A DNA stretch of 64,000 bases from Escherichia phage OliverMaurmann_Bas86, in the sequence record PQ850622.1; one strand, given 5' to 3'. The notes under the pieces were generated by a model that was given only the letters and a program-made list of their open reading frames with translations, was not told where the DNA came from and did not search any database. Positions 30,769-60,886 of the stretch are shown here, piece after piece. Every line of letters begins with the position of its first letter. The stretch's first letter is position 1. The translations under genes were made by a program, and so were the position numbers.

Positions 30769-31587
30769 TTACCAAGTTTTATCTAACCATGACCAATCAA
30801 AGAGGTCACCTTCAGCTTGTCCAACGAAGAGCAATCGAGCATTTTCTAACATCTTAGCTTCTGCTTCTTCCTCGAACCTTTTATAGTATTCCATTCGTAT
30901 AATATGATAAAGAGTCCACTTATCGAATACCTTCTCAATAAGTTTGATTGCAGCCTTACTACCAATGCCTTTACGACGCATTACTAGATTGCCACCCCAC
31001 ATCATTTCAACCTTCTCACCGCATCCGGGAATGTTATCTGTGCTATCCCCGATCAGCATCTGGTAGAAGAAGTTCTGCCATGCTACTTCTTCTGATACAT
31101 AGTGAGGAGGTACTTCTTTCTGTCTCTCCCCGCAAGCCCAACGGTAATGCCATCCGGGAGTGATTAACAAGTCTTTATCACGGGTGCAAATGATAGTGTT
31201 CTTATCACGTCTCTGTCTTTCAGCTAGGGCATCATCCGCCTCTCTCCCAAAAACTTCTACGTATTCGTAATTCTCTTTAATGTAATCACTGACATTTTGC
31301 CAGTGGTGAGGTCTTTCTCCCGGTGGTCGATTAGCTTTATAACCTTGCTGCTTAGCAATATCAAACCGAAAATTACCACCTTCGCTGAAGTAAAAGATTG
31401 TTTTCTCACAACCAGACCTTGCAATGATTACATCTATTTTATGTTGAAGTCGTTCAATCAAGAATCCATAATCAACTGGAACACGACCTGTGTCTAGAAA
31501 AGGATGCTCTTGTGTAAGAGCACCGACTTCATATCGCAGAACATCTGCATCCACAATTGCTACTTCAGGATAGATTACATCAGACAT
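30769..31587 (-). CDS. 5'-3' exonuclease / flap endonuclease
   Basis: H3TH-type motif LIGDSTDNIPG; ORF track begins at TTG 31611, but ATG 31587 (MSDVIYPEVAIVDADVL) has a GGAGAG RBS and is preferred. Confidence 0.8.
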   Translation of the reverse strand: MSDVIYPEVAIVDADVLRYEVGALTQEHPFLDTGRVPVDYGFLIERLQHKIDVIIARSGCEKTIFYFSEGGNFRFDIAKQQGYKANRPPGERPHHWQNVSDYIKENYEYVEVFGREADDALAERQRRDKNTIICTRDKDLLITPGWHYRWACGERQKEVPPHYVSEEVAWQNFFYQMLIGDSTDNIPGCGEKVEMMWGGNLVMRRKGIGSKAAIKLIEKVFDKWTLYHIIRMEYYKRFEEEAEAKMLENARLLFVGQAEGDLFDWSWLDKTW

Positions 31588-32176
31588 AGAGATCTCTCCG
31601 TGTCTCTTCAATAATCCACTCTAAATCATCAACTGCCTCTTCTACAGAACGGTCATTAAAGAGGAGGTAGGTTGGTAGGTTTGTTCCTTCAATATAAGAA
31701 CGGGAGTCCCCTTCAAAGGAGCAGCCATCTCGGAGAATCTGAACTACTCGAACATAGAAGTGTTTCTCTAGTTCTTCAACTTCAGCTTTGAACCCACCAT
31801 CAGAGAAGACGATAACATCATTCTGTGATGGGATACGTTGTTGAATACTGCTAACAGCAAGTTTACCCATGCAGGTCTCACCAAACATAGGTTTCAGATA
31901 ATCCTCACTAGTTGCAATCATCAAGTCTCGAACTGACTTACCGCCCCATTCAGGACGGATATGTTCTTTCCACTCACGGTCGTTGTACAGCTCCATGAAC
32001 TTATAAAGAGGGAGACCTAATGCAGCAGCAGCCACCCGATACATAGGCTCCTTAAAAGCCTTTACATGCGGTCTAAACTCAGTGTTACCAGCGGTCTTCT
32101 CTAACCAAGCATTAGCGATTGTATCTTTACCACAACCCGGAGGTCCATTTAGAATTACTACTAATGGTTTACTCAT
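31580..32176 (-). CDS. P-loop nucleotide kinase (dNMP kinase-like)
   Basis: 198 aa; Walker A VVILNGPPGCGKDT near N-terminus, resembling phage dNMP kinases. Confidence 0.55.
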   Translation of the reverse strand: MSKPLVVILNGPPGCGKDTIANAWLEKTAGNTEFRPHVKAFKEPMYRVAAAALGLPLYKFMELYNDREWKEHIRPEWGGKSVRDLMIATSEDYLKPMFGETCMGKLAVSSIQQRIPSQNDVIVFSDGGFKAEVEELEKHFYVRVVQILRDGCSFEGDSRSYIEGTNLPTYLLFNDRSVEEAVDDLEWIIEETRRDLYV

Positions 32177-33075: not shown

Positions 33076-33371
33076 TGTATTCCTCTCTCCTTTAGAGCTT
33101 TAAGCAAACCGTTGTGGTTAGCGGCACAGGTTGTATAATTGTCCTGATACCACTCGAGTGTTGTTGCAAGTGCTACTCCCTGTCCACTCTGAAGTAAAGG
33201 GAGGTCTACATCACATTCAGCTTTTAGGTTTGTTGGTAAGGGCATTAGCTGCCTGCTGTTGTCGCTCGTTGAACAAGCCATCAAACTAGAAGCGAGCAAA
33301 ATCACCAAACAACTCTTTTGCTTTTTCTTTGTAAGCATTTTCTGCACCTTCTTGAGTGCTATGATAACCAA
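33072..33371 (-). CDS. Lipoprotein (o-spanin candidate); true start probably the internal Met (MLTKKKQK...)
   Basis: Signal peptide with lipobox L-M-A-C (KKKQKSCLVILLASSLMAC); small mature domain with 3 Cys. Confidence 0.4.
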   Translation of the reverse strand: MVIIALKKVQKMLTKKKQKSCLVILLASSLMACSTSDNSRQLMPLPTNLKAECDVDLPLLQSGQGVALATTLEWYQDNYTTCAANHNGLLKALKERGIQ

Positions 33372-33780
33372 GCCAAATTACTTTGTTTTGATATCCGATA
33401 CGAGCACTCCATTTATTAATATCTGACCTGTATCCTACACCTTTTATTCCAGTTAAAGAGTTCTTTTGAACTATTTTATTGGCATTGTTGAGGACAGGTG
33501 TTGCTTTTCTTAGATTGCTCCAAGAGTTATTAGACTTATCTAAATCTTTATGGTCTATTTGGAAATCGGGAATTTCTCCAGTTTTTATATACCAAGCAAC
33601 TCGGTGAGCTTTGTATGTCTTTCTCTGAAAATTCAATGTTACATAACCAGCTTTTGTTTTACACCCTGCAACCTTTCCTGCGAGTCTTGAGTTCCACTGA
33701 GCGCTCTTATCTTTAGAATGTTTCCAGTACAGAAGACCGGAAGCCTCGTCATAAGACAGATATTTAATTAATTCTTTAAT
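33286..33780 (-). CDS. HNH homing endonuclease (HNH_3 + AP2-like), predicted ATT start
   Basis: ORF track starts at TTG 33636, but the frame stays open upstream and encodes the conserved N-terminal YLSYDEASGLLYW module; only candidate initiator is ATT 33780-33778, 7 nt after GGAGG. Confidence 0.55.
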   Translation of the reverse strand: MKELIKYLSYDEASGLLYWKHSKDKSAQWNSRLAGKVAGCKTKAGYVTLNFQRKTYKAHRVAWYIKTGEIPDFQIDHKDLDKSNNSWSNLRKATPVLNNANKIVQKNSLTGIKGVGYRSDINKWSARIGYQNKVIWLGYHSTQEGAENAYKEKAKELFGDFARF

Positions 33781-42324: not shown

Positions 42325-42645
42325 TCAGATTGATTTGTCCTTATGTAAACGGTATACTTCAGTAGTCATACAAGCTATACGCTCGTCATGTGGGAGATGC
42401 ATACCAGTAGAGCCGTTCCATCCTTCGAACTCTGAATCAAAGAATCCAATAGGCTCGGGATACATCTCTTGCAAGGTGGTTAAGTCATCAGCCACTTGTT
42501 GCCACTTATCGTCAGACCAGATTGGGTCATCCAACCAATAATACAAATAGGAGTGGATAAGCATCTGTGTTCTGTGTCGTTTAATCACTTCAGCAGGACT
42601 GATTTCATTTCCGTTACCAGTCCTAAATGTACTATCGTTGATCAT
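42325..42645 (-). CDS. Small protein resembling the N-terminal Ia domain of NAD-dependent DNA ligase
   Basis: 106 aa; HSYLYYWLDDPIWSDDKWQQVADDLTTLQEMYPE parallels E. coli LigA [35 protein letters not shown] (from memory). Confidence 0.4.
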   Translation of the reverse strand: MINDSTFRTGNGNEISPAEVIKRHRTQMLIHSYLYYWLDDPIWSDDKWQQVADDLTTLQEMYPEPIGFFDSEFEGWNGSTGMHLPHDERIACMTTEVYRLHKDKSI

Positions 42646-42976: not shown

Positions 42977-43624
42977 TTAACTCTCCAAAGTTTTCTTCAA
43001 AGCTGCCCATGAGATTGGATAGAGTTTAGCCATCTCTTCATCTAATGACTGAGCAAATAGTCGAACTTCATATTGAGCATGGGATGATAGTCGTTGACGA
43101 CACAATTCAAACCAGCCATACAAGCTACCAGTCCAGTACCAAGTAGTTACCATACCTTGAGGTAAAACAAATCTAGCTTGTTCAGGAGCTACGAACTTAA
43201 TCAATTCGTCATAACTAGCAAGAGATGCCTCGTACGCAGAGTTAAACAAAGCTAAAGCTTTTGCCTCTTCCTCCCCTTCAAGAAGTATTCCAGAACCAGA
43301 ATGTAGATCATCTGGACGGGAGAAGATTTCTTTAGGTATGAAAATATCCACTGCTCCATCTTTATATCTACGACTCATCTCGTTCCAAGAAAAACCAACT
43401 TGATGCTTCTGTAACTGTCGTGCAATTGCTATAGGAGCTTCGCATCTGAAGCTCGCTTGTGGGTGACGAAAAGGACTTACGTGTCGTTCCCGAGCTAGAA
43501 AATTTATTAGACGAGTGTCACTTTCTTTTAATTCTTCCCTTTCTACCCCCATAGTTACACGAGCAGCATTGACTACTGTAAGATCTGAACCGAAGTTATC
43601 AATTAATGAAGCTTTGATTGTCAT
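42977..43624 (-). CDS. thyX: Flavin-dependent thymidylate synthase (ThyX)-like protein, divergent signature
   Basis: 215 aa; collinear with ThyX but the RHR....S motif reads KHQVGFSWNEMSRRY. Confidence 0.7.
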   Translation of the reverse strand: MTIKASLIDNFGSDLTVVNAARVTMGVEREELKESDTRLINFLARERHVSPFRHPQASFRCEAPIAIARQLQKHQVGFSWNEMSRRYKDGAVDIFIPKEIFSRPDDLHSGSGILLEGEEEAKALALFNSAYEASLASYDELIKFVAPEQARFVLPQGMVTTWYWTGSLYGWFELCRQRLSSHAQYEVRLFAQSLDEEMAKLYPISWAALKKTLES

Positions 43625-44090
43625 TTATGTAAGTCTCCTTGACTTTATTATATTCCCTAGAGGCTTCTTCTATGGTTGAGAAGAGTCCTATGTGCTTAGA
43701 TTTAAATACCGCCCGGTAAGCAATAGAGCCACTTTTCCTTCTATGGACAGTCACTCCAATCACTCCGGTTGATAAATTATTACTCTGAGCTACTTTGTTT
43801 AGGCCATTTCCTGATCTAGTAGTCCCCCTAAGATTCTCTCTTTTGTTGTTTATCCTGTTGCGGTCTATGTGATCTACTTCTTCAGGAAGCAATCCAGTGT
43901 CCCACCAGTAAGCAAGTCGATGAGCGTAGTATCTAGCACCTTTATAAACGATTCTCAAATACCCATTGGTATTTACAGAACCAGCTATAGACCCTTTGTG
44001 TCCTTTTCCATAAGTTTTAACCCATCGGAAATCTCCAGTCAAAGGGTCGTAATCAAGAGCTTCTTTTATTGACGGGTCAATATCATTCAT
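43599..44090 (-). CDS. HNH homing endonuclease (HNH_3 + AP2-like)
   Basis: 163 aa; YDPLTGDFRW, GYLRIVYKGARYYAHRLAYWW...VDHIDRNRINN. Confidence 0.75.
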   Translation of the reverse strand: MNDIDPSIKEALDYDPLTGDFRWVKTYGKGHKGSIAGSVNTNGYLRIVYKGARYYAHRLAYWWDTGLLPEEVDHIDRNRINNKRENLRGTTRSGNGLNKVAQSNNLSTGVIGVTVHRRKSGSIAYRAVFKSKHIGLFSTIEEASREYNKVKETYINDNQSFIN

Positions 44091-44105: not shown

Positions 44106-44381
44106 TTATTTATTGCCTAGAGCTGTATCCAAAAATGCTTTCAGGTTTGCTTCAGTCTGCATACCGGAGAGGCTGTAGTGTGCACCACTGTTACGGTCAG
44201 GCACAACGAAAGCAGGGATACTTCGTACACCATACTTAACAGCTTGTTCACGACCATCACCTTCAAGGATGTTAATCTCTTCCACTTCTACATCAAACTC
44301 CTTAACAACCTTCTCAAAGGTAGGAGCCATTGCTTTACATGGAGCACATGAATTACTATAAAATTTAATTACTTTACTCAT
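44106..44381 (-). CDS. Thioredoxin/glutaredoxin-like protein (CAPC active site)
   Basis: Start refined to the internal ATG (MSKVIKFYSNSCAPCK) with AAGGA RBS; CxxC in thioredoxin-fold context. Confidence 0.65.
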   Translation of the reverse strand: MSKVIKFYSNSCAPCKAMAPTFEKVVKEFDVEVEEINILEGDGREQAVKYGVRSIPAFVVPDRNSGAHYSLSGMQTEANLKAFLDTALGNK

Positions 44382-44571
44382 TCTATTCCTTGTTAATAAA
44401 CAGATTGATATGGCGCTGAGTAGCAGGGACAACAATAAAAGATTTATACTGCCCTTTTGCTAAATCATGAGCAATCTTCTTTGTCTGACCAAGACCCATT
44501 ACACAGCCACTAACAATAATGGCATGTGCTTGTAATTCTTCAGGGAGGTTTAATTTCACTCTTTGGATTCC

Positions 44572-45007: not shown

Positions 45008-45583
45008 TTAGTAAGACACATCACCACTTGAGTGGGACATGTTGCTCTTGACGAAGTAACAGAACTTGCCAAGACCTTCATTAATTTCTTGAAGCATACT
45101 CTGGTCCACTGGATAGGTGCACAAGTCTGAATCAAACTCATCCATCTTCTCAATGATACACATAAGAGTCATGCACATGTCGGAAAGCATACCGTCCATG
45201 TCGAGATCAGCGTTACCTTCTCGGAACCAAGCATGGCCTAAATAATTACTAGCAGTAGCATCCACTTTAACACAATGAAAGCGCATACGCTCTGCTATTC
45301 GGTCGCCTGCCTCACGAGCATAATCTTCTAGTTCATCGAACATACCATGAACACCTTGGAAACCAGCTCCAGAGACGTTCCAGTGGTAGTTCTTTGCTTT
45401 GATGTGTAGAAGTTCAAGGTTAGCTTGCACACCACACAAGATGTGTTCTAAGCTGTTACCGCTAATCAGTTTATTCATTCCCTCAAGACGAGAGATAGAA
45501 GAGTCAGTAGTAGAGAATGGGTTGCTAGAACCCACTCGTGTTAGTTCTGGTAAGTCGAAGACATTATTATGCATTAGGTGCAT
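45008..45583 (-). CDS. Dps/ferritin-like protein
   Basis: 191 aa; KNYHWNVSGAGFQGVHGMFDELEDYAREAGDRIAERM matches the Dps ferroxidase-region pattern. Confidence 0.5.
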   Translation of the reverse strand: MHLMHNNVFDLPELTRVGSSNPFSTTDSSISRLEGMNKLISGNSLEHILCGVQANLELLHIKAKNYHWNVSGAGFQGVHGMFDELEDYAREAGDRIAERMRFHCVKVDATASNYLGHAWFREGNADLDMDGMLSDMCMTLMCIIEKMDEFDSDLCTYPVDQSMLQEINEGLGKFCYFVKSNMSHSSGDVSY

Positions 45584-46388: not shown

Positions 46389-46922
46389 TTATACGCCTTT
46401 AGAAGCAACAACCCCATCAGAGTTATTGTAACGACCCTTCACTGCATAGGAATCATCACCAGCGTGAGAGTGTTCAAACATAACCATTTGACCAACACGC
46501 ATCCCAGCACGAACTCGTAAGCTGTGATTGTGGGTAACGTTATGGAACTCAAAGGTTAGCTTACTGCTGTTAAACCCTGCATCAGCCCACCCAGCATGTA
46601 AGTGGTTCAAACCACAACGAGCCATTGAGGAGCGAAGTACAAACAGACTTGAGATGTTATCTGGAAGGTTAAACTCTTCCATTGAGTGCGCTAAGAAGAA
46701 TTGTCCCGGAGTGATGACAATACCATCTTCAGGGATTTTCACCTCTTTCCACTTGAGGTTTTCTTTAGCATCAATGTCAACAATGCCGTCAGCCTGTTCT
46801 TCAACAAGGATAGTATCACCAATACGGATATCCACACTAGCAGCGTTAACATATTTATGCTCCGCATCTAAAAAGCCATTATCAATAACACTGTGTAATT
46901 CTTGAGAACCTAAAAGACTCAT
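46389..46922 (-). CDS. dcd: dCTP deaminase family protein
   Basis: 177 aa; AGWADAGFNSSKLTFEFHN resembles the Dcd/dUTPase-fold GW.D.GF.G....E motif. Confidence 0.75.
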   Translation of the reverse strand: MSLLGSQELHSVIDNGFLDAEHKYVNAASVDIRIGDTILVEEQADGIVDIDAKENLKWKEVKIPEDGIVITPGQFFLAHSMEEFNLPDNISSLFVLRSSMARCGLNHLHAGWADAGFNSSKLTFEFHNVTHNHSLRVRAGMRVGQMVMFEHSHAGDDSYAVKGRYNNSDGVVASKGV

Positions 46923-48367
46923 GAGTTTCTGTTTCCTTGTACAGATGATGCCAAATTGTTAATCATGTTACGAGCTGTTTCACGAGTCAGCGTAACACCT
47001 GCTAAGTTACTATCAAGTTCACCAACTAATTCACGAGCTGTTGCTCGGAGTTCTGCACCAAGTGTAGTGTTAGAATGAGCCAGACCATTACGACGACCGA
47101 CAGGTCGAGGAGTATTGTTAGCATCATTAGCTAAAGATGCAAAACCAATACGAGCAGCTTCACGAGCGGCTATAGCTGCTACCCGATCTTCCGTAGGGGT
47201 TGGCAAATCACCAACTTCTACACGTTCTATATCACTAGAACGTAGACCCTGAACAACAGAGCTAACTGTTTCCCATGAACGACGGGAGCGCTGCAAATCA
47301 CCCATAGATGGAGAAGAAGCAGGTCGAACAGTTACTCCACCTGTATCATGAGTGACGTGCCATGTACGAGTACCCATTCCAGAAGAACGGGCACTACCAA
47401 AACTACCAGTGAAAGTATCACGAGGTGCCTCTGTAGCAGGTGCTGCGAATCTTGTCTGTTGCCAAGAGTCACGTCTGTCAGTTCCCGGAGTCCAAGGCTG
47501 CGTAATTGCTTCAGCACCTATAGTGGTTAATCCGCTAGACCATTCTGTCTGTAGATTAACTTCCTCGTCCAGATAACTACGACCCCTTTCCTGAGGAATG
47601 TTTAATATAGTTTCCATCATCTTCAGGGTATAATGATGACGCTGATTCTGATATAAATTTACACCAGCCATAGGTCCAACTAAATCACTAATCAGGTGAA
47701 CTTCTGGCTCACCGAAAGCTCCCATTGCAAGGTGCATGTATTCAGTAGAACTGCTATAAACTGCAACAGTTGCTTCAGGCCACTTCTTGTGAACATACTT
47801 CATTTCACGACTAGATACCACAGGAATGTCACGAGTGTATGACATTGCAAACAAACCTTCGTTTGACACATACAGATTACCAAGAGTCATAAACCCTTGA
47901 CAGATCATAGGAAAGCGACGGCTTAAAGTATCCATATCCAAAGGTAGATTAATCATCATCTGGATTTTAACTTGATCAATCTCAATTTCCAGAATCTCTT
48001 GGAAAGTGAAAAGCGCTTCAGCATAGGTTGTCCCGTTAACAGGCTGAATTAGTCGAGATGTAACCTGAAGCCCCTTACTTTCTGTCCAAGATAAGAAGTT
48101 GTCAAGGAATAGTGCAGCATTACCTACGTTAGCAGGGCTGTTTTCTTGACGAGTGTTCCAACGAAGCCCTCCTTGAACTAGGAAGATATCAACATCATTC
48201 GGAGTTCTATTTTGAAAGAACGTATCACGGATAGCACCACCTGCAATAACAGGATAGATGCCATCAGGGACTACGTTATCTCTGATCAAATTACGAATCA
48301 GGTCAAGCCCTACACTGAGGGCTTCTCCTTCTTGAAGGTTCAATTCAGATAGTGGAATCTTAATCAT
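46919..48367 (-). CDS. Pol-beta superfamily nucleotidyltransferase (CCA-adding/poly(A) polymerase-like head motif) with Arg/Ser/Thr-rich C-terminal tail
   Basis: 482 aa; VIAGGAIRDTFFQNRTPNDVDIF matches the GG.(V/I)RD...D.D motif; last ~200 aa low-complexity. Confidence 0.55.
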   Translation of the reverse strand: MIKIPLSELNLQEGEALSVGLDLIRNLIRDNVVPDGIYPVIAGGAIRDTFFQNRTPNDVDIFLVQGGLRWNTRQENSPANVGNAALFLDNFLSWTESKGLQVTSRLIQPVNGTTYAEALFTFQEILEIEIDQVKIQMMINLPLDMDTLSRRFPMICQGFMTLGNLYVSNEGLFAMSYTRDIPVVSSREMKYVHKKWPEATVAVYSSSTEYMHLAMGAFGEPEVHLISDLVGPMAGVNLYQNQRHHYTLKMMETILNIPQERGRSYLDEEVNLQTEWSSGLTTIGAEAITQPWTPGTDRRDSWQQTRFAAPATEAPRDTFTGSFGSARSSGMGTRTWHVTHDTGGVTVRPASSPSMGDLQRSRRSWETVSSVVQGLRSSDIERVEVGDLPTPTEDRVAAIAAREAARIGFASLANDANNTPRPVGRRNGLAHSNTTLGAELRATARELVGELDSNLAGVTLTRETARNMINNLASSVQGNRNS

Positions 48368-50737: not shown

Positions 50738-50944
50738 TTAGTAAAACGATCGTATTTCTTCCCACACATCATCTTGCAAGTTTCTAAAACCCTGCAAGGT
50801 TTGCTTTGTTCTGTGAATAAATTCTTCAGAGTGCTTATCAGGTGTGAGCATACTGACAAACTTTTCATAGCGATTAATCTTCCACCGCATCTTCAAGTAG
50901 TCAGATTCCAGCTTTCTTAACTTCTGCCTGTCAGTTACTGTCAT
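50738..50944 (-). CDS. Hypothetical small protein
   Basis: Start refined to the internal ATG (MTVTDRQ...) just after the upstream stop. Confidence 0.3.
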   Translation of the reverse strand: MTVTDRQKLRKLESDYLKMRWKINRYEKFVSMLTPDKHSEEFIHRTKQTLQGFRNLQDDVWEEIRSFY

Positions 50945-51362
50945 CCTTCTCACCTGCCAGATATGCTGTCCAGTCACCAGATTCAACCAGAACATCTTGT
51001 TCTTCGTCGATGTGATAAATCCACGCTTCCACAGTTTCACCGCTGTCCAATAATACTGGAATCAGCGTACGCTTATAAAAGGTGTATGGGTTATCATTGC
51101 CACGGTGACCTTCCAGACCGTCATATGGGCCTTCCAGACCAGCTTGGGTTGTTTCAAAGACTTCTACACGAACAGGCTTACCATTGCTGTCATGCTCCAA
51201 AGATACACTTGGGAAGTATGCTGTGCAATACTGATACAGGTTACAGTTGTTTACTGTCCACCCTTCACCAATAGACACACCACCTGCACGAGCATTGATA
51301 GCATGGTTGTGTTGACCTTTTCTCAAGCTTCCGTAAGTTGCAACTAGTACTTTATCAGACAT
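50931..51362 (-). CDS. Gamma-glutamyl cyclotransferase-like (AIG2/GGCT fold) protein
   Basis: 143 aa; N-terminal VATYGSLRKG (YGSL hallmark) and later acidic residues. Confidence 0.65.
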   Translation of the reverse strand: MSDKVLVATYGSLRKGQHNHAINARAGGVSIGEGWTVNNCNLYQYCTAYFPSVSLEHDSNGKPVRVEVFETTQAGLEGPYDGLEGHRGNDNPYTFYKRTLIPVLLDSGETVEAWIYHIDEEQDVLVESGDWTAYLAGEKDDSN

Positions 51363-51428
51363 TATATTACCTTTTAGTGTTTCAGTTAAATTCGAACTAG
51401 CCTCCTCTTTCGAAGAGGCTAAAGCAAA

Positions 51429-51614
51429 TTATTCTACTTCGAAGTGTTTGATCACACCAGTCAACACATCAGATTGGAATGTACCCACTAGCTCTGTACC
51501 TCGGAAGAAGTTAACACTTGTTCCAAGTGATTCAAAGCGATCTGCTTGAATGTCCAGAGATTGAATATTTCCTTCTGCTGACATTGTACGAAACATGATT
51601 GTGTATTTATTCAC
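51429..51614 (-). CDS. Hypothetical small protein
   Basis: 61 aa ORF. Confidence 0.3.
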   Translation of the reverse strand: MNKYTIMFRTMSAEGNIQSLDIQADRFESLGTSVNFFRGTELVGTFQSDVLTGVIKHFEVE

Positions 51615-51853
51615 AGACTTGTTACTCCCTTATCTGCTTGTGCAATTGCGATGATACGCTCAGCACATTCCATTGAATATTTATCACCTCGTTTGAGGAA
51701 GGTGATGATTGCAGAGAACTGATTACCAATCATTCTCTTATTTGTGATACCGAACTCTTCACAGAGTTGGTTGATAGCTTTACGAGAGCCTACAATCAGA
51801 GGCTCTTTTTCTTCGGTCATTCCACGGCTGATCAAATCTTCGATAGACAACAT
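51611..51853 (-). CDS. Hypothetical protein
   Basis: 80 aa ORF. Confidence 0.4.
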   Translation of the reverse strand: MLSIEDLISRGMTEEKEPLIVGSRKAINQLCEEFGITNKRMIGNQFSAIITFLKRGDKYSMECAERIIAIAQADKGVTSL

Positions 51854-51879
51854 TACAAATTCCTTTTTGTTTAATTTAA

Positions 51880-53115
51880 TTACAGAGTTACTGCTACTTC
51901 GCTACCTTCAACATTGACAGACTCTAACTTGCGAGGGTTATGAATCTGTACCGGATTAACCGGAACGTTCCAACCACTACGGTAGAAGTTACGACCATCA
52001 CAGAACAAAATGACATTGGCAGACATTGCATTCGGTTGCAGGTTGTTATGGACATGACGGATATCTGCAATCCAATAACCACGAGACAAAGTGTAACCAG
52101 TAGGTGCATTACGAATAGTTTGAGTATTCATCTGACCTTCCAGTTGCATCTCTTCAGGAACTACATCTACCGAATCAACTGGCTGTGCTACCTGATCTTC
52201 CAGTGCAAAGTTTTCATCATTAGCGCTTTCGCTGTCATCTACCAACTCACCGTCTCCATCTTCAATCGGAGTCTGGTAAACCACTTTATACTGAGGAGTA
52301 TAGAGAGGGTTCTGAGCTTTAACAAACTCAAGGATGTTATGGCGGTAGGTATCCAGAGTTGTACCAGTCAGGCCCGGTGCTGTATTAACTTCCAGTACCC
52401 ACGCTTCTTGACCTTTGGTGATAATATCAACTGCACCGAAATCCAGACCCATTGATTCAACAGCTTTCACCGCATTGATCAGAGAGGCGTCATTCGGAGC
52501 ATCTGTGAAGGAGCTTGAGTAAACCCAGCCAGTGTGGTGATTACGAATATCTTCACGATAGTTAGGGTCTTCGCGATAACCATTGCGACGAATCTTCTTC
52601 TGAACATAGGTGATTACACCTTTGAACACATGAACACGCCACTCACGACGTGGGCCTTGAATGCCTTTAGTGTACAGTTCAGCTCGACCAAGACCATCAC
52701 CCGGTTCTACAACAACAATACCCGAACCAGAGTGACCAGTCAGCTCATGGCGCTCATACACAATATTACCAGTGTTTGACCACTCCTGAGCAGTCTCTTG
52801 AACATCTGTGTATTCCACAGTTTTAACACCTGCTTGGTCCATCACACTGAAAGCACGACGTTTGTTCGCTGCCATATATAAGGCTGCGGTACGGTTAAGG
52901 ACGGTTGCAGAACCAAAGAATGATTCAGGATAGCGACGGTTCCCGTAGTTAACAACCACATCACCTTCACGAGAACGCCAGCGGCTATTCTCTGAAAGAA
53001 GACCCATCACGTTAGCATTGATGCGTTCATCACGGATAGTATCACTGATAGCAGATACTAGAGCGTTAACAGAATCAGACGGGCCATACGGAAGAACACG
53101 GATACGAGTAGTCAT
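51880..53115 (-). CDS. ATP-grasp enzyme (RimK-like ligase) with extra C-terminal domain
   Basis: 411 aa; ELTGHSGSGIVVV, EWRVHVFKG, WVLEVNTAPGL; acidic linker then ~120-aa C-terminal region. Confidence 0.85.
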   Translation of the reverse strand: MTTRIRVLPYGPSDSVNALVSAISDTIRDERINANVMGLLSENSRWRSREGDVVVNYGNRRYPESFFGSATVLNRTAALYMAANKRRAFSVMDQAGVKTVEYTDVQETAQEWSNTGNIVYERHELTGHSGSGIVVVEPGDGLGRAELYTKGIQGPRREWRVHVFKGVITYVQKKIRRNGYREDPNYREDIRNHHTGWVYSSSFTDAPNDASLINAVKAVESMGLDFGAVDIITKGQEAWVLEVNTAPGLTGTTLDTYRHNILEFVKAQNPLYTPQYKVVYQTPIEDGDGELVDDSESANDENFALEDQVAQPVDSVDVVPEEMQLEGQMNTQTIRNAPTGYTLSRGYWIADIRHVHNNLQPNAMSANVILFCDGRNFYRSGWNVPVNPVQIHNPRKLESVNVEGSEVAVTL

Positions 53116-53117
53116 TT

Positions 53118-53348
53118 TTAGATACCTTTTAGTTTAAGAATTTCGTTACGACAGGATTGAATTTTAGCTTCGATTGCCCAATACTCAGCGAACATTTCGT
53201 CTTCTTGGGCATCGCTTGGAGAGTCAATTAAGTTAAAAGCAAACGGATACAGCTTTCGCTGCTCCGTTACCAGTTGTTGAAGTCGGAGTTGTTGATACTC
53301 CAGCATTGTCAGGTGAGGCTTAGCTCCCTTGCTTGACATGAGGCTCAA
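53118..53348 (-). CDS. Hypothetical small protein
   Basis: 76 aa ORF. Confidence 0.35.
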   Translation of the reverse strand: MSLMSSKGAKPHLTMLEYQQLRLQQLVTEQRKLYPFAFNLIDSPSDAQEDEMFAEYWAIEAKIQSCRNEILKLKGI

Positions 53349-53553
53349 CTTTAATCCCCTTCATTTTAACATAGTCAGCCAACACGTTATTGATAACGGT
53401 TGGAAAAGGGATTTCTACTGGAGAGTCAACCAGCTTCCCAATACCTTCTTGCATCCACTTCTGGATTGCTCGGAGGTTATCACATCCTGTGCTTGTCATC
53501 GGAATACGGCGGGTAGTTACCACGTTATCCAACATCAGTTTACGAACTTCCAT
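53320..53553 (-). CDS. Hypothetical small protein
   Basis: 77 aa ORF. Confidence 0.35.
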   Translation of the reverse strand: MEVRKLMLDNVVTTRRIPMTSTGCDNLRAIQKWMQEGIGKLVDSPVEIPFPTVINNVLADYVKMKGIKVEPHVKQGS

Positions 53554-53564
53554 AACTATACCTC

Positions 53565-55598
53565 TTAGTGTTTACCTTTACAGTAATCTGAATTACAGAT
53601 CACCCTGTTTTCTTTGTTCAGTGAGCAAGTTTCTGCATCACGCCACGGAATTTGTTTATAACAGACTGCACAAAACCCAATTGAAGTCCAGAGGGCTTTT
53701 GTAAACTCAGCTGTTCGTTGTCCATCGTAACTGACAACTGTTTTTCGGAGAGAGGTTGACTTTTCTGGAAATGTCTCCGCTTTCTCAGCGGGTACCTCCT
53801 TTGGGGCATTCTTTGGACCATAAACAGAGATGGCATAAGTATCACCACCACGTTTTTCCAAATACGAATTAGGAACATCTGCAAGTGTGATGTCCCCTGA
53901 ACGTTTTGCTGAGCTGACCATTACAATCATACGGCTAAGCATACGTTCATCAACACGAACAGCTACTTCAGGACGACGTGGGTTGGTTGTGTCTACTGCT
54001 TTAGTCCAAATATAACCTTCAGATAGAGTAACATTCTTTACTTTATCTTTGATTTCTTTGGAGCAGATATAACAAACGTCTTCACCACGAAGTTTACTCA
54101 TTTCGTTGTCAAACTCGAAATCAGTCTTGACTTCACCACAGATAGCACATACACCCAAAGGCACATCTTCTTCCTCTTCAGAGGTTTTAGATAACGCTTC
54201 GAAGCATTCTGGATGCCAGTATGCCTGATAAGCAAACACAGCCTTACGAGCATCTTTCCAGTCAATGTGCTTATCACAACCACCACAGTCACCATGAGAG
54301 TGAGATTCCCAGAACTTACGAGTGACTTCTACACCATTCTTAGTGATGAAGGAGTCCTCTGCATCAAAAGGGATATCATCATCAAAATCAGCAGTAGTGC
54401 TTTGAGGCTCCTTATCTGTAGCATCAACAAACAGCCCTGAAGTTAGTACGAGGCGAATCATACTGTCCACTTCGGAGATACAAGCGATTGTCCCGCGATA
54501 TACTACCTTTGGGTTTTCAAGAGCCTTAAGATATTCATCTTTGGCTACGTTGTGAACATCCCCTTCGACATACTCTTGGGCTTTATCATCGTAGATGTAA
54601 CCAACCATCTTACCACGATCTGTGTTGTTATAAGCATGGAACTCGTGAGGAGTAATATCCACACGACCATCACGACGATAAGGAAGACCACGATCGGCAG
54701 CCAGTTTGTTCTGGTCTTCAATCGCTTTACGACGACGAATGTCTCCGCTTGTCACGCCGGGCTTGTCGTCTTTGTTTCCGTAAATGTCGCTTGTGCTGCT
54801 GCTTGGTTTGTTTGTCTGTTGGTTCTGATAAAGAGAGGAGTTCGAGTAATAGCCGCCCCAGCGACTCGTTACCGTAAAAACCGGAAGCTTGTGCTCCACC
54901 TCTTGAACCAGAGTCATACGACTGTTAGACACATCAAAGATATACTCAGTTCCCACTTTACACTCGAAGTGGTCATTGATACGGTTCTTGTGGGATTTAG
55001 AACGCTCTAAAATCCACATAAGCATAGCTTCTTCAGAAGCCCCAAACCAATCCAAACCACAGCGGGCTAGGTGGAAAGGACGCTCATCATTACGGATAAT
55101 GTGAAGCGTGTTGTCTTTAGCATCATGCCAAATCAAAGTGAATGCACCATCCAGTTTTTGGATAGTCTCTGCTGCTCCAATGGTGTTAATTGAGTGGCAG
55201 ATGTTTTCACTATCAACTTCGAAACGCTTACTGTCAGGAAGGAGATCTTGATCTAACAGGGTTCCATTATGAACCAGAGTAATATCCCCGTGAGTAAATG
55301 GGTGAGCATTTCGAGCATTGACAGCCCCACGAGTGGCATGTCGGCTGTGACCAACAATCCACGAAGGAGGAACTACGTAGTTCGTAAGCCCTTTGGTAAT
55401 ATTTGTATATTCTGTCTGGAGCATAAAAGCATAAGAAGGAAGAGCTTCTTTATAAGAGAAGACTTGCTTTTCACCTTTACGCTGACCAAACACACCAGTT
55501 GAGTGCTGTCCACGGAAAACACCAGCATACAGAAGTTGGTTGAAAATGTCCAAATCTGCTGAGGTCATGTTGCCGCCAGCTAATACGATACCACAAAT
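53565..55598 (-). CDS. Class-II (Ntn-type) glutamine amidotransferase domain protein with Cys-rich C-terminal region; predicted ATT start
   Basis: IVGHSRHATRGAVNARNAHPF resembles the GlmS-type motif. Frame is open 10 codons upstream of the ATG, encoding (start)-CGIVLAGGN; ATT at 55598-55596 sits 7 nt after AGGTGGA. Confidence 0.75.
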   Translation of the reverse strand: MCGIVLAGGNMTSADLDIFNQLLYAGVFRGQHSTGVFGQRKGEKQVFSYKEALPSYAFMLQTEYTNITKGLTNYVVPPSWIVGHSRHATRGAVNARNAHPFTHGDITLVHNGTLLDQDLLPDSKRFEVDSENICHSINTIGAAETIQKLDGAFTLIWHDAKDNTLHIIRNDERPFHLARCGLDWFGASEEAMLMWILERSKSHKNRINDHFECKVGTEYIFDVSNSRMTLVQEVEHKLPVFTVTSRWGGYYSNSSLYQNQQTNKPSSSTSDIYGNKDDKPGVTSGDIRRRKAIEDQNKLAADRGLPYRRDGRVDITPHEFHAYNNTDRGKMVGYIYDDKAQEYVEGDVHNVAKDEYLKALENPKVVYRGTIACISEVDSMIRLVLTSGLFVDATDKEPQSTTADFDDDIPFDAEDSFITKNGVEVTRKFWESHSHGDCGGCDKHIDWKDARKAVFAYQAYWHPECFEALSKTSEEEEDVPLGVCAICGEVKTDFEFDNEMSKLRGEDVCYICSKEIKDKVKNVTLSEGYIWTKAVDTTNPRRPEVAVRVDERMLSRMIVMVSSAKRSGDITLADVPNSYLEKRGGDTYAISVYGPKNAPKEVPAEKAETFPEKSTSLRKTVVSYDGQRTAEFTKALWTSIGFCAVCYKQIPWRDAETCSLNKENRVICNSDYCKGKH

Positions 55599-55675
55599 TT
55601 TCTAATCCACCTGAAGGGTAAACCCTTTCATCTAATTAACCTTTAAATGCGCCCTGTATAAGAGCGCCCGTTGTG

Positions 55676-56776
55676 TTACAGCAGTCGTTCTAATTGCATT
55701 TCCAGAAGGTCTGGAATATAACCAGTGACGTTATCATCACTGCTACCTGATTCACGCATCAATGCAAACATGTGACGAATTTCACGAACCGTTGCGATTC
55801 GAGTGCTTTCAATCTGAGGGGTGTAGTAGGTCATGATCTCTTCGTAGACACTGTTGGCATTACCGCGCACATATCCCAAGAAACCATAGAAGTCATTCAT
55901 ATCACGTAAGTTGATAAGGACTTCACCATCAGGGCCAGTCTGTTGCACACGAACACGACCAACCAAAGTCACAGATTGCTCACGACAGAAGAGAATATCA
56001 CGAGCAAGACGATACCCTTCAGTGAGATCACTGTCTCTTGGAGTATAGTCTAGGGGTAGATGTTGAATCATAGGAGCGAAGCGCAGCTCATTCAACTTCT
56101 CAACATAAGCTTCATTGTCTAAATCTGCATATTCAACAGCCAGTTTCTTGAGAACCAAGAAGCGGTTGACCAGATTCAGAAGTTGGCTCTTTTTCCACTT
56201 CGGCTCTGAGATACGGAACTCAACAGAACCAAATTGAGATAGAGGCAAAAGATTAAGGGAGGTATATTTATCCCAGCTATTAACAAGAGAGTGGAAGAAA
56301 GCTTCCCCGTCTCGGTTGAACGCTGACGAAGCATTCATAACTTGTGCTTGAACGACAGCAAAAGCTGGACAGAAGTTGCTACGATAGCGATGGTATCCAG
56401 AACATTTGAACATCATCTTTTCATAGAACGTCCATCCAAGAATAACTTTCTTAAGGATGTTACTATCAGCGTCACGCATATCCATATGAACATGAGTGGA
56501 GCAGCGCCAAGTTCCCTCGGCTCCAGAATCCTGTACTGCTTCACTCAGATTGTTAATAGCACGAAGTAATTCTTCACCGTTGTAAGGTCGTGCACATACT
56601 AATTCACAACCATCACGAAGAGAGCCATCTTCAGTACAAACCCACATATCAGCGTCAATGTCAGTTGTACCTTCGACTTCTAACTCAATACCAACACCAC
56701 ACTGAAAAGCAATACTTGGATGCGGTTCAGATAAGCGAGGGTTACGGTATCCAAAAACTTGTGCTACGGTTGTCAT
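55676..56776 (-). CDS. Glutamine synthetase-like amidoligase (carboxylate-amine ligase)
   Basis: 366 aa; GIELEVEG, STHVHMDM, GSVEFRISEP. Confidence 0.55.
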   Translation of the reverse strand: MTTVAQVFGYRNPRLSEPHPSIAFQCGVGIELEVEGTTDIDADMWVCTEDGSLRDGCELVCARPYNGEELLRAINNLSEAVQDSGAEGTWRCSTHVHMDMRDADSNILKKVILGWTFYEKMMFKCSGYHRYRSNFCPAFAVVQAQVMNASSAFNRDGEAFFHSLVNSWDKYTSLNLLPLSQFGSVEFRISEPKWKKSQLLNLVNRFLVLKKLAVEYADLDNEAYVEKLNELRFAPMIQHLPLDYTPRDSDLTEGYRLARDILFCREQSVTLVGRVRVQQTGPDGEVLINLRDMNDFYGFLGYVRGNANSVYEEIMTYYTPQIESTRIATVREIRHMFALMRESGSSDDNVTGYIPDLLEMQLERLL

Positions 56777-57399
56777 AATGATTCCACCAACTCTACATTA
56801 TATGATGACAGGTCTGAAGAAATATGCTTGAACTTCTCCAGAAGGTTTAAAGATTGACGACCATTGTCGCCATAACCAGCTTCAAGAAGCACGTTTCCAA
56901 CGTAAGCCCCTTTGTAATAAACTTTTCCATCGACAGGATTGATATAGATGAAACGAGTAACCAACCCTTCAAACTCTGGATTAAACAGGTTGTACACCAA
57001 TTCACCCGGAATCGAACGACCGAGAGAAGGAGGTGCACCGCGAAGTTTGTTTCCCATCAAACCTTTAGCTCTCTGACGAACAGGGTTGATATGGGTCCAG
57101 CTCACCATGTTATTGCCATGCTGAAGGTATCCTACATCTGGAGATTCCAGAATAAGGCTGTGATCAAACACTGGTATATTGCTAACAATCTGACGTTCAA
57201 ACTGACCTTCAGAGTTTTTAGTCCAACGTTCTGCCTCAAACACTAAAGACATTTCAGCGTCGTGTGAGTAGTCGTCGATATCAAAGTTACCTTGCTGACG
57301 AACATCAAGCACATATAGAGGGAGGTTTTTACCATCAGGTGATCGCTGAGCAATCCATGTTCCACAATAATAGTGTTGAAAATCTCTTAACAAGCTCAC
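56773..57399 (-). CDS. Hypothetical protein within amidoligase cluster
   Basis: 208 aa; GTG start with AAGGTGA RBS. Confidence 0.45.
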   Translation of the reverse strand: MSLLRDFQHYYCGTWIAQRSPDGKNLPLYVLDVRQQGNFDIDDYSHDAEMSLVFEAERWTKNSEGQFERQIVSNIPVFDHSLILESPDVGYLQHGNNMVSWTHINPVRQRAKGLMGNKLRGAPPSLGRSIPGELVYNLFNPEFEGLVTRFIYINPVDGKVYYKGAYVGNVLLEAGYGDNGRQSLNLLEKFKHISSDLSSYNVELVESL

Positions 57400-57408
57400 A
57401 ATATCACC

Positions 57409-58218
57409 TTATACAATCTGGAGTTTAGAGGAGAATTTATCCGCTTCTTTAACATCGTTGCTGTTGATGATGTTATGAAGCTTTTCGATTGGAAGACGAG
57501 AGTGAAGTGACATCAACACTTCCATATCACAGCCTTGAACAACCTTATCCACTTGCTCATAAACAAACTTGCGGGTTGACTTCTCACCAATCCAGAAGTT
57601 AGAAAGAGAACGATATTCAATACCGTAGTCCTTGTAACGAATAGCAGAAGCCTTTCCGTACAACTCTTTACGACGAGTGTCTTTATCCATGATTACAGCT
57701 GGCAAGGACAGGAAGTAATCACACAGCACACCCAACATCATTTGAGTTTGTCGATTGATCTCCAAAGTTCCAGAGACACCGAGGTGCACATGGCCCCCAG
57801 CAGTACGCAAACCTTTATCGGTTGCGACTGGTGAAGGGTTCTTTTGTCCAGTGAAGGCGTTGAAATCAGGAGTACAGCCAAATACAAAAGCTGACGGATG
57901 GAATGATTCAAGCTCTTCTGAAGTGAACACATGAGAGCTAATCCCAAGCGCTGCTTCCAGACCACGATCATTCAGGATTTTGTTAGTCAGATCAATACCG
58001 CGCTGAATATTATCATCAAACGCTTCAAACCCTTTCTGTGGGTTAATATCAAACTCAGCCAGAACGTTGTCTTCTTGAAGACGAACATCAGGAGCCAGAT
58101 CAATTTTGTTATCTTTAGAACATCCCAGCTTACCAGCCACAGAGGTGATAATACCGGAAGCAGTACGAACAAACATTTCCGGATCCGACCCTATTAAGAA
58201 TTTACGTTTAGTAGTCAT
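57409..58218 (-). CDS. Second GS-like COOH-NH2 ligase (phage amidoligase type)
   Basis: 269 aa; GSDPEMF and GGHVHLG. Confidence 0.5.
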   Translation of the reverse strand: MTTKRKFLIGSDPEMFVRTASGIITSVAGKLGCSKDNKIDLAPDVRLQEDNVLAEFDINPQKGFEAFDDNIQRGIDLTNKILNDRGLEAALGISSHVFTSEELESFHPSAFVFGCTPDFNAFTGQKNPSPVATDKGLRTAGGHVHLGVSGTLEINRQTQMMLGVLCDYFLSLPAVIMDKDTRRKELYGKASAIRYKDYGIEYRSLSNFWIGEKSTRKFVYEQVDKVVQGCDMEVLMSLHSRLPIEKLHNIINSNDVKEADKFSSKLQIV

Positions 58219-58685
58219 GCTTTAGTCCAACCTTTATGAGATAGATAGTTTTTAAATCTGCCACTGTGCACAGCGCCCATGTGGCCTTGATGTAAGTCGT
58301 TGCTTCTACAGAAGTCTCTAAGATTGTATATTGTTACAACCTCGCCATCTGGAGATCTAAACTTCCAAAATCTAGCATTCCCTTTCACAGCGTTTTCTTC
58401 ACTGGTCAGAAGTTGGAAATTACTTGGGTGGTTATTAAGTTTATCGCCATCGATGTGATCAACAGTCATACCATCCGGAATAGGCCCAATAAACAATTCA
58501 TACATAAGTCTATGTAATAAAAAGTTCCTTGTTATCTTTTCAGGAGCCTGAACTGTTGTAAACTTAAGATAACCATCTTTATCAGGAAACAGTTTCCTCT
58601 GTTTCCCTGTTCTTGCATGGAATATACTACCGTCTTCGAACACCAAGAAGGTAGCAACTCCGACTACTAACTCCCTAAATTCCAT
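58215..58685 (-). CDS. HNH homing endonuclease inserted in amidoligase cluster
   Basis: 156 aa; HRLMYELFIGPIPDGMTVDHIDGDKLNNHPSNFQLLTSEEN. Confidence 0.75.
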   Translation of the reverse strand: MEFRELVVGVATFLVFEDGSIFHARTGKQRKLFPDKDGYLKFTTVQAPEKITRNFLLHRLMYELFIGPIPDGMTVDHIDGDKLNNHPSNFQLLTSEENAVKGNARFWKFRSPDGEVVTIYNLRDFCRSNDLHQGHMGAVHSGRFKNYLSHKGWTKA

Positions 58686-58709
58686 AGAGAGCCAATAAGG
58701 AAAGCACGC

Positions 58710-59660
58710 TTAGTCATTGTAATACTCCACGAGTTCATCAAAAAGGGAAACAACACGAGCACCAGCTTCTTCTGGTGTCATTGAGGAAGGTACTGCTTGC
58801 ATCAGTCGTTCGATAAAACTGCGAACAGTGATTCTGTCCATACGCTGATCTAATACTTCTCGCTTGTGACCTGCACAAGTTGACCAGAGACGCAACCACT
58901 CACTCATACTTTCATAATGGTCAGGGTCTTGGTCACGACGGCGTGCCATACGACGGAGAACTCCATCATTATGGTTTCGTACATAACCATCTCGGTTATC
59001 ATCAACACCGAACACATTCTGAACCCATACGTTTTCAGAAAATTCATCAGTGGTGCAAATTAGTGGCAGAAATGCAATTGCACTCATGTCACCATCAAAA
59101 TAAGTCGCTGCTGACTCATCGGTTGAGTCTACGTCATTACTATAACACCAGCGACCAAAGAAGTTACGACTTAAACCAGCTAAGCGTAGAGCTAAACCGA
59201 TTCGTTGTCGCTTAAGCAACTCTTCCTTGTCTTGTACGCCTTCCTGAAGGAACTCCATTCCATTAAAATCACCATCCAAATAGCTACGGATGGTCATTAG
59301 TCCAGTAAACACCTTGTCTGCTGGATGGTTTCGAAGGTTCACGGCAATGGAGTTCACCGAAGTGACAGAGAACATATCTTTATAGCAAGACATTGAGTTA
59401 AAAATGTCTGTTGCTTCAACTAAAGCTCTTTCGATATCTTTAGCCGGCACGCCATAAAAATTGTGAGGCCAGAAGTTAATAACTTCAATTTCTGAAGTTC
59501 TGTCACGAAGGCTTGTTCGGTTACGACTTTCACCGTTAATGTCTGTAACAGAATACATGTGCATACAGTTAAAAGTACCAAAGCAAGCTCTTCCTTTGAA
59601 CACTGACTCACCGAAATCCTCTGCCGGTGTTACCGGAGCAATCGATGCGGAGATTGACAT
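58710..59660 (-). CDS. Hypothetical protein within amidoligase cluster
   Basis: 316 aa ORF. Confidence 0.45.
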   Translation of the reverse strand: MSISASIAPVTPAEDFGESVFKGRACFGTFNCMHMYSVTDINGESRNRTSLRDRTSEIEVINFWPHNFYGVPAKDIERALVEATDIFNSMSCYKDMFSVTSVNSIAVNLRNHPADKVFTGLMTIRSYLDGDFNGMEFLQEGVQDKEELLKRQRIGLALRLAGLSRNFFGRWCYSNDVDSTDESAATYFDGDMSAIAFLPLICTTDEFSENVWVQNVFGVDDNRDGYVRNHNDGVLRRMARRRDQDPDHYESMSEWLRLWSTCAGHKREVLDQRMDRITVRSFIERLMQAVPSSMTPEEAGARVVSLFDELVEYYND

Positions 59661-59668
59661 ATTCGCCT

Positions 59669-60886
59669 CTATTTATTAAAGAATAATTTTTCCATAATGG
59701 TTTCCCACTCTTCTGAGGGGAGGGTTGAGAACCCGTTTCCGTGAAGCCTGTTTGTCATGCAACTAATAATATTGTACATGTTGTAGCTTCGGGTGGATTC
59801 TGTTCCATTGTTCCAGTTATAACCGAAAACAATTTTATCGAAGGAGGTTTTATCCGTAGTTACTTCTCGGATGAACTCAACCAAGAGCGATTTCTCTGTG
59901 ATGACCGCACGTTCACCATCTGGCAGATTACAATACTGAGGAAGAAGGATTGGTAAGAACATCGAATTGTTCACTCGACAATCGCGCACACCTTCACTGC
60001 GATAGATTAGGCTTGAGAAGTCTTCATCACGCAGGTGTCCTTCACCTTCAGTGTATTCACACTGTCGCCATTTGGTCTGGCGAGGTTCAACCATTGTACT
60101 ACCAACGCCTACTGTATACAGAGACGCTTGGAAGATACATGAATCGTAATCATTCCCTGTTAAAGCAACTTGCTCATTGCCGAACACATCCACTGAAGAG
60201 TTGATCAGTCGGCTGAATGCAAGAGAGGCTAAAGGGGACCAACCTTTCTTATACATCTTGTTCAACATTTCATACACAGCAGATTTTTCATCATCTGTAT
60301 AGAATGTACGATTCAGCATCAGATAGAACAGAGCGCGATCAGCAGGACAACCATCAGTACAAACACCCATGAATCCTACTTCATGCCATACCAGACATGA
60401 GTCAGAATCCTTATCCATGAATGCTTCAAAGGCTTCCATTACAGCCCTGTCAGTAACATCAGGACGGTTGTTTTCTTCTGCCCATGTTTCTACATGAGAA
60501 GGAGGACGAGGGTCTCCATTCTCCACCCCTTCGCGGAAATATTGAGTGGTAATAGGCTTTTTATCACCATAACGTTTTACACCATAAGCGGGAAGGTGTG
60601 TACCAGAGTTCCAGATGTACTTAATTTCGGACATAGGCATCATGTTTTCAAGAACGTTCTCTTCAGCAGTGCCTTGACGAACCATCATATTTTCACTCCA
60701 CACCTTAATGCGGATATTCCAGCCGTAGTTGCTGTCATACGTGTTATAATAATCAGGATCACCATCTTCATCTTCATCATAATCACCACCCTGATAGTAA
60801 CCTGCTTTCAGGAAACCATAACAAGGAGGCCAGATGGTTACAACATCATCTGATTCTTTCCAGCTTTGAAGTGTTACAGGGAACAT
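59669..60886 (-). CDS. Hypothetical protein within amidoligase cluster
   Basis: 405 aa; acidic DYDEDEDGDPDYY stretch near N-terminus. Confidence 0.45.
   Translation of the reverse strand: MFPVTLQSWKESDDVVTIWPPCYGFLKAGYYQGGDYDEDEDGDPDYYNTYDSNYGWNIRIKVWSENMMVRQGTAEENVLENMMPMSEIKYIWNSGTHLPAYGVKRYGDKKPITTQYFREGVENGDPRPPSHVETWAEENNRPDVTDRAVMEAFEAFMDKDSDSCLVWHEVGFMGVCTDGCPADRALFYLMLNRTFYTDDEKSAVYEMLNKMYKKGWSPLASLAFSRLINSSVDVFGNEQVALTGNDYDSCIFQASLYTVGVGSTMVEPRQTKWRQCEYTEGEGHLRDEDFSSLIYRSEGVRDCRVNNSMFLPILLPQYCNLPDGERAVITEKSLLVEFIREVTTDKTSFDKIVFGYNWNNGTESTRSYNMYNIISCMTNRLHGNGFSTLPSEEWETIMEKLFFNK

Follow-up and report, generated by a model that had tools for sequence, protein, structure and literature searches.

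A ThyX with a K-H-Q and S-R-R-Y signature in Escherichia phage OliverMaurmann_Bas86 belongs to an essentially virus-restricted subfamily and is likely a functional dTMP synthase

ThyX, the flavin-dependent thymidylate synthase, is an antibacterial drug target. Its motif is the RHRX7S of Myllykallio 2002, as quoted in an evolutionary study in which sequences deviating from it by more than two residues were discarded (PMC2826268). The RHR residues form hydrogen bonds with flavin adenine dinucleotide (FAD), at the adenosine monophosphate (AMP) phosphate, the ribityl chain and the flavin mononucleotide (FMN) phosphate; the first Arg alone also contacts the isoalloxazine ring and helps to hold deoxyuridine monophosphate (dUMP), and RHR does not include the remaining dUMP ligands (PMC6514825). 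In this study, we analyzed a stretch of 64,000 nucleotides from Escherichia phage OliverMaurmann_Bas86 (record PQ850622.1), referred to below as the window, and focused on its thyX gene, an open reading frame (ORF) of 215 aa with an ATG start at 42977..43624 on the minus strand. The phage is a Kuravirus-type (Gordonclarkvirinae) E. coli podophage. Its ThyX departs from the canonical motif, and we consider it likely that the protein is nevertheless a functional enzyme serving a route from deoxycytidine triphosphate (dCTP) through dUMP to deoxythymidine monophosphate (dTMP) for an AT-rich phage genome, as judged from sequence comparisons.

The phage protein has the same domain, length and fold as the ThyX of Thermotoga maritima (Tm; TM0449, PDB 1O26) and the Thy1 of Thermus thermophilus (6J61), with an identity of 28-33%. 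Residues 7-203 corresponded to positions 2-190/191 of Pfam Thy1 PF02511 (E 4.7e-43, 147.6 bits with a cut-off of 24.8), the NCBIfam thyX equivalog TIGR02170 was passed with 126.1 bits against a cut-off of 87.9, and the HMMER alignments with TM0449 (E 3e-22) and 6j61 (E 3e-30) were collinear. An AlphaFold (AF2) model of the monomer without ligands, computed from 30 subfamily sequences, had a pLDDT of 94.6 and a pTM of 0.87. When it was searched against the PDB with Foldseek, the top 50 matches were all ThyX chains, with TM-scores up to 0.86 over the full length (0.86 for the Tm enzyme, 0.76 for 6J61). An earlier note on this DNA, made from the letters alone, had called the protein a collinear ThyX relative, and the full-length Thy1 match and both alignments bore this out. 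Escherichia phage vB_EcoP_PAS59 (OQ921332.1) encodes an identical protein (100%), recorded as "thymidylate synthase". Identity falls to 97-99% for the counterparts in SU7, O18-011 and XT18/XT32 and to about 80% for those in SU10, NJ01 and other kuraviruses; the gene is retained even in reduced kuraviruses of 67-69 kb.

The motif is encoded at 43364..43408 (minus strand) and reads K73-H74-Q75-V-G-F-S-W-N-E-M-S84-R85-R86-Y87. In the HMMER alignment, K73-H74-Q75 stood opposite Tm R78-H79-R80, and S84-R85-R86-Y87 stood where Thermotoga reads S88-G89-R90-Y91. The earlier note was therefore right that K-H-Q takes the place of R-H-R, and a reading of the whole 215-aa protein gave no other RHR. It had implied a spacer of 7 residues; the loop VGFSWNEMS is one residue longer than the IASYNELS of the solved enzyme, and the spacer to the conserved Ser is therefore 8 residues, a length also seen in one canonical R-H-R mycobacteriophage enzyme. 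Both solved enzymes share H53, Q75, E86, S88, R90, Y91, E144, R147, R174 and Q180 (Tm numbering) with the phage protein, in which Tm E58, N163, R165 and N169 are not conserved.

The identical K-H-Q signature was present in 119 of the 120 closest representatives of 90%-identity clusters, down to 53% identity, with the shared pattern K-H-Q-x-G-F-x-W-N-E-x-S-[R/M]-R-Y; Salmonella phage SeKF_80 and Aeromonas phage 4L372D are among the 120. When 1.84 billion 50%-identity representatives were searched exhaustively with HMMER, 6846 ThyX-like clusters were obtained, and nearly all recognisable motifs in the best 150 of these consisted of [K/R]-H-x, an 8-residue spacer and S-R-R-Y, with Q, K, T, V, M, N, E and rarely R at the third position. 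Ending in S-R-R-Y throughout, K-H-Q was found in Chaseviridae (Bp7) and Vibrio phage KIT05, K-H-K in N4-like Schitoviridae (phiA41, pYD6-A) and Barbavirus, and K-H-E in the HMO-2011-type roseophage CRP-1. In contrast, the ThyX of Thermus phage phiYS40, Pseudomonas phage BL5, a Bxz1-type mycobacteriophage and cyanopodovirus S-B28, which likewise lie in replication or nucleotide modules and are roughly 27-32% identical to the phage protein, keep R-H-R with S-G/Q-R-Y, and the Kuravirus protein groups with the K/R-H-x, S-R-R-Y phages. At least 600 IMG/VR contigs carried a close signature, and in cellular genomes (one per species, 185,579 bacterial and archaeal species) it was found only on one 526-bp scaffold, which is probably phage contamination. 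The wide spread in phages and near-absence from cells therefore indicate that the signature marks a large, essentially virus-restricted ThyX subfamily. A viral branch in which the canonical motif is consistently replaced by K/R-H-x ... S-R-R-Y appears to be undescribed in the searchable literature; the thyX gene itself is already annotated as ThyX in GenBank. The protein of Streptomyces phage LukeCage (L008, 241-954) is more divergent, with K-Y-A and a 7-residue extra insertion before W-N-E-S-S-R-R-Y, and this actinophage group has lost even the His of the motif.

Residue conservation was assessed in 356 distinct sequences aligned to the subfamily profile together with the Thermotoga and Thermus enzymes, and Tm numbering is used for it. 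E144, R147, R174 and Q180 were each present in 356 of 356 sequences, followed by S88 (355), R90 (354), Y91 and E86 (353 each), Q75 (349), H53 and H59 (344 each) and R74 (332); H53, R74, Q75, E86, S88, R90, Y91, E144, R147 and R174 are all present in the Bas86 protein. According to PDB entry titles, H53, S88, R90, Y91, E144 and R174 are residues that have been mutated in mechanism studies. Position 78 stays basic (K in 315, R in 40), position 79 is H in 334 and S in 19, and position 80 is unconstrained (Q 250, K 36, T 27, R 12, H 10, V 7). At position 89, R was found in 314 sequences, M in 29 and G in 8. Positions 80 and 89 covaried, with 309 sequences having R89 and no R80 and 7 having R80 and no R89, in a sample that holds few canonical sequences and was not corrected for phylogeny. 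Canonical RHR enzymes among the sampled sequences were paired with S-G/Q-R-Y, and K/R-H-x enzymes with S-R-R-Y. The loss of R80 paired with the gain of R89 suggests a relocated arginine.

This pattern bears on what the substitutions mean. The earlier note had taken the motif arginines as contacts of the dUMP phosphate; this holds in so far as the first Arg, here a Lys, touches dUMP, while the motif mainly binds FAD (PMC6514825). Since only the first Arg touches dUMP, the sole substrate-contacting motif residue is here a conservative Arg to Lys change, and K73 would preserve the positive charge of Tm R78, the motif residue touching both the flavin ring and dUMP. The residue turned Gln is, on the alignment, evidently a flavin-phosphate contact that the subfamily can spare, and the contact of R80 with the FAD phosphate would be dispensable in it. 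The subfamily-specific R85, at the position of Tm G89, probably compensates for the lost R80. Natural variation thus suggests that changes of R to K and of R to Q can be tolerated. An altered substrate or chemistry, which the earlier note took the substitutions to suggest, is not supported by them, as the other dUMP-contacting and mechanistic residues are present and the variant is normal in a large phage subfamily. Being the norm there, beside replication and ribonucleotide reductase genes, it is no change peculiar to one lineage and coupled to a modification pathway.

Codon usage and mobile elements provided further evidence. Across 56 virome loci, all synonymous codon types were used at K73, Q75 and R85, and both the AGY and TCN families at Ser84; this synonymous diversity shows that K73, Q75, S84 and R85 are held by selection at the amino-acid level. 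The deviation from the canonical motif is neither chance nor decay. In several relatives, HNH inteins were inserted exactly between G-F and S/C-W-N-E (the equivalents of F78 and S79): the metagenomic ThyX P0121, P0151 and P0264 carry HNH-containing inteins between K-H-x-x-G-F/T/A and S/C-W-N-E...S-R-R-Y, and P0124 has the same junction, between HN and SWNE, by sequence. Intein insertion inside the motif is the behaviour expected of a functionally critical site. Two further metagenomic proteins are differently built, P0187 having a LAGLIDADG-type insertion farther upstream in ThyX and P0198 a similarly long N-terminal extension without a domain match.

The nucleotide-metabolism setting claimed by the earlier note was confirmed, as minus-strand genes encode a dCTP deaminase (46389..46922), a thioredoxin-fold protein (44106..44435) and a deoxynucleoside monophosphate (dNMP) kinase (31580..32176). 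The dCTP deaminase was recognised by Pfam DCD (E 1.5e-34) and by the NCBIfam equivalog TIGR02274 (106.6 bits, cut-off 92.8), and its R-S-S..R..G and catalytic Glu segments aligned. Its closest solved chains were 4xjc and 2qxx/2qlp, ahead of E. coli Dcd 1xs1; we take these chains to be dUMP-forming bifunctional enzymes, although the tool output names them dCTP deaminases only. The kinase matched PHROG 139, deoxynucleoside monophosphate kinase (E 4e-41), and carries the annotation dNMP kinase in OQ921332.1. Both genes lie in the same transcription block as thyX. No dUTPase was found in the window, and E. coli ThyA, used as a tblastn query, had no homologue in the 64 kb of the window, beyond which lie about 15 kb of the 79-kb phage genome, or in 80 related viral loci; the GenBank record has one thymidylate synthase in the 40.6-kb stretch displayed. 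An anticorrelation between ThyA and ThyX among genomes is known (PMC7824862). Unbiased clustering of the genes in the 80 loci gave DNA polymerase A in 44, class II ribonucleotide reductase in 37 and primase-helicase in 36 as neighbours, with endonuclease I and MazG also among them. The recurrent neighbours are functions of deoxynucleoside triphosphate supply and replication.

A plausible model for the pathway can be proposed. The phage dCTP deaminase would convert dCTP to deoxyuridine triphosphate or dUMP. ThyX, presumably an FAD-containing homotetramer whose active sites each draw on three subunits and which is reduced by NAD(P)H, would pass the methylene of methylenetetrahydrofolate (CH2-H4folate) to the flavin N5 and from there to C5 of dUMP, and reduction would give dTMP. 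The phage dNMP kinase would phosphorylate dTMP to dTDP, and the nucleoside diphosphate kinase of the host would complete dTTP. The net effect would be a pyrimidine pool moved from C to T for a genome of 42% G+C, and neither ThyA nor dihydrofolate reductase would be needed. The G+C content of the window is 42%, and that of the host is roughly 51%.

Several observations weigh against a functional dTMP synthase. The protein reads K-H-Q-X8-S, keeping only H and S of the four residues specified in R-H-R-X7-S, and its best solved relative, 6j61, is a canonical RHR enzyme. Among the flavin-phosphate contacts of the Thermotoga enzyme, two or three (R80, R165, N169) are not conserved, and cofactor handling in the subfamily may differ from that enzyme. 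Literature searches found no assay, thyA complementation or crystal of any K-H-x / S-R-R-Y member. A cellular organism with a K-H-x ThyX as its sole thymidylate synthase was also sought, and the 526-bp scaffold was the only hit among the 185,579 species genomes; as cellular genomes lack the subfamily, nature offers no example of an organism whose sole thymidylate synthase is of this type. In addition, Gordonclarkvirinae are reported to be strikingly resistant to restriction-modification (RM) without a known modification pathway or anti-restriction gene (PMC11990801). EcoRI, EcoRV, EcoKI and EcoP1 sites occurred at the expected frequency in the window, which points to some unexplained DNA protection in these phages; site avoidance was accordingly rejected as the cause of the published resistance, the sites of the tested enzymes (EcoRI, EcoRV, EcoKI, EcoP1) not being depleted.

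The flavin-side changes could mean that the enzyme still makes dTMP and has switched its cofactor, using FMN, a weakly bound flavin that can exchange, or some reductant in place of NADPH. Position 80 is non-basic in most members, R165 and N169 are not conserved, and RHR is what binds the AMP phosphate, FMN phosphate and ribityl chain (PMC6514825), all of which would fit such a switch. However, the canonical T. thermophilus Thy1 also lacks R165 and N169, having H at both positions, and these residues are therefore not diagnostic; the new conserved R85, in the same loop, could restore phosphate binding. The thioredoxin gene upstream of thyX here and a glutaredoxin upstream in Barbavirus had raised the idea of a redoxin as alternative reductant. 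A redoxin was near in only 2 of the 80 viral loci (tblastn, of low sensitivity), and the idea was dropped. Taken as a whole, we regard a switched cofactor as unlikely.

A further explanation is that the product is not dTMP. Water might capture the exocyclic-methylene intermediate in place of flavin-mediated reduction, giving for example 5-hydroxymethyl-dUMP, and the base, once incorporated into phage DNA, would add to RM resistance. The changed contacts are indeed on the flavin side, on which the reductive half-reaction depends, the encoded dNMP kinase could phosphorylate a modified dNMP, and covalent DNA modification is suspected by the authors who described the unexplained resistance (PMC11990801), for which site avoidance offers no explanation. 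Against this, the same type of ThyX occurs in hundreds of unrelated phage lineages, in plain replication and ribonucleotide reductase modules, and there is little or no variation at E144, Y91 and the residues that bind the uracil and the phosphate. The neighbourhoods of the 80 loci held no known base-modification enzymes. At 30-61 kb, most ORFs of 110 aa or longer were scanned against Pfam and PHROG; they gave replication, lysis, HNH or amidoligase-type matches or nothing, and no hypermodification family or recognised dTTP-exclusion gene was among the matches, though small ORFs or unknown families are possible. We therefore hold such a product to be quite improbable, and it is highly improbable that the rebuilt flavin site alters the redox half-reaction such that a non-dTMP product feeds a DNA modification explaining type I, II and III resistance.

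PolB, the UMP/dUMP C5-methylase of polyoxin biosynthesis (PDB 4P5A), has the ThyX fold and was matched at E 4e-20; we take it to be the known ThyX homologue with a changed substrate preference. It is more distant from the phage protein than bona fide ThyX and belongs to an antibiotic cluster, in contrast to the phage DNA replication setting, and there is no evidence of ribonucleotide use by the phage enzyme. The hydroxymethylases of the ThyA family, T4 gp42 for dCMP and those of SPO1, M6 and ViI for dUMP, are not homologous to ThyX, and to our knowledge all phage hydroxymethylases are of the ThyA type. If the phage ThyX made a product other than dTMP, these enzymes would be its counterparts in function. 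The window has no ThyA-type gene. The 5-hydroxymethyldeoxyuridine (5-hmdU) pathway begins with a classical ThyA-type enzyme and continues with 5-hmdU DNA kinase, aGPT-Pplase and glycosyltransferases (PMC8989533).

The restriction sites themselves also argue that the DNA is sensitive to some enzymes. CCWGG, the Dcm and EcoRII site, was absent from the window, against about 86 sites expected from dinucleotide-preserving shuffles; PstI, SacI, NcoI and SphI sites were likewise absent (8-20 expected each), and EcoO109 had 1 site with 17 expected. GATC sites were as frequent as expected. Counter-selection on restriction sites is strong and selective, and this elimination implies that the phage DNA is exposed to cutting by ordinary type II enzymes. 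Consistent with this, restriction profiling and subcloning served to map the termini of phiEco32 (PMC9965538). The N4-like phages were considered as a link between the enzyme and RM resistance, and this was rejected, as no Escherichia phage was among the K-H-K matches listed at E <= 1e-30; the members of the K-H-K clade among these matches are Klebsiella, Pectobacterium, Vibrio and Pseudomonas N4-like phages. N4, which is described as well protected too, is not among the listed carriers, and resistance does not track the enzyme. The BASEL-2 study speculates that deoxyuridine (dU) is present in the DNA, citing the dCTP deaminase and a nucleotidyltransferase and leaving thyX unmentioned (PMC11990801). 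A conserved, apparently functional thymidylate synthase downstream of dCTP deaminase argues against dU in place of deoxythymidine (dT). Literature searches found no nucleoside analysis of Kuravirus DNA. The ThyX sequence gives no argument for the non-canonical pyrimidine raised by the earlier note, and what interest remains comes from outside, from the RM resistance of Gordonclarkvirinae (PMC11990801).

That the protein is catalytically dead or moonlighting, for example in nucleotide binding or regulation, is barely credible: the literal motif is broken and biochemistry of the subfamily was not found in the literature, but the substrate-binding and catalytic residues are near-absolutely conserved among proteins otherwise about 40% identical, the codons reveal purifying selection, the score exceeds the curated equivalog threshold and inteins home into the motif.

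If the phage ThyX is a functional dTMP synthase, RHRX7S, which is used as a family definition, fails for a large share of viral ThyX. These enzymes would keep the motif His and Ser and a basic first residue, with a second Arg two residues before the Tyr. The essential motif contacts would be the first basic residue, S88, R90 and Y91, and the R80 clamp could be lost. The phage enzymes would thus represent a natural mutational scan of ThyX. The dU-for-dT idea of BASEL-2 would be opposed, and the cause of restriction resistance would have to be sought elsewhere. The relevance for ThyX enzymologists and annotators is modest, and would be higher only if an altered chemistry were true.

Two other parts of the window touch on the modification question. 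The "nucleotidyltransferase" (482 aa, 46919-48367, minus strand; PHROG 12715), flanked by the genes for the DNA polymerase exonuclease subunit and dCTP deaminase, had no Pfam match and no solved relative by sequence. Its N-terminus reads GGAIRD...NDVDIF, in which we presume a resemblance to the head motif of CCA-adding enzymes and poly(A) polymerases. BASEL-2 names it as a possible DNA-modification enzyme (PMC11990801). The other part is a phiEco32-type gamma-glutamyl/amidoligase cluster (50931-60886, minus strand) directly upstream of the replication genes, which is worth weighing alongside the RM resistance of these phages. It comprises a GGACT-like gamma-glutamyl cyclotransferase (50931-51362), a RimK-like ATP-grasp protein (51880-53115), a class II glutamine amidotransferase (53565-55568), an amidoligase (55676-56776), a protein without assigned function (56773-57399), a COOH-NH2 ligase (57409-58218), an HNH insertion, and two large proteins without assigned function (58710-59660 and 59669-60886).

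Around thyX itself, an HNH homing-type endonuclease gene (43599..44090, minus strand; Pfam HNH_3, E 2.9e-10) is wedged between the thioredoxin-fold gene and thyX. Its end shares a 26-nt overlap with the start of thyX, and the Shine-Dalgarno sequence of thyX, AAGGAG at 43635..43640 on the minus strand, lies 10 nt upstream of the ATG within the 3' end of the HNH gene. The other two of the three HNH homing-type endonuclease genes in the early/middle block are at 58215-58685 and 33286-33636, also on the minus strand. The window further encodes a split family-A DNA polymerase, a primase-helicase, a PhoH-like protein and a 5'-3' exonuclease. A 106-aa protein at 42325-42645 (minus strand) consists of the NAD+-binding Ia domain alone (Pfam Nlig-Ia, E 3.7e-33), without the catalytic DNA ligase domains. 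A Ferritin/Dps-like protein is encoded at 45008-45583 on the minus strand (Pfam Ferritin, E 7e-8; PHROG 3636 "DNA binding protein"), and the GenBank label "integrase" for this product looks wrong.

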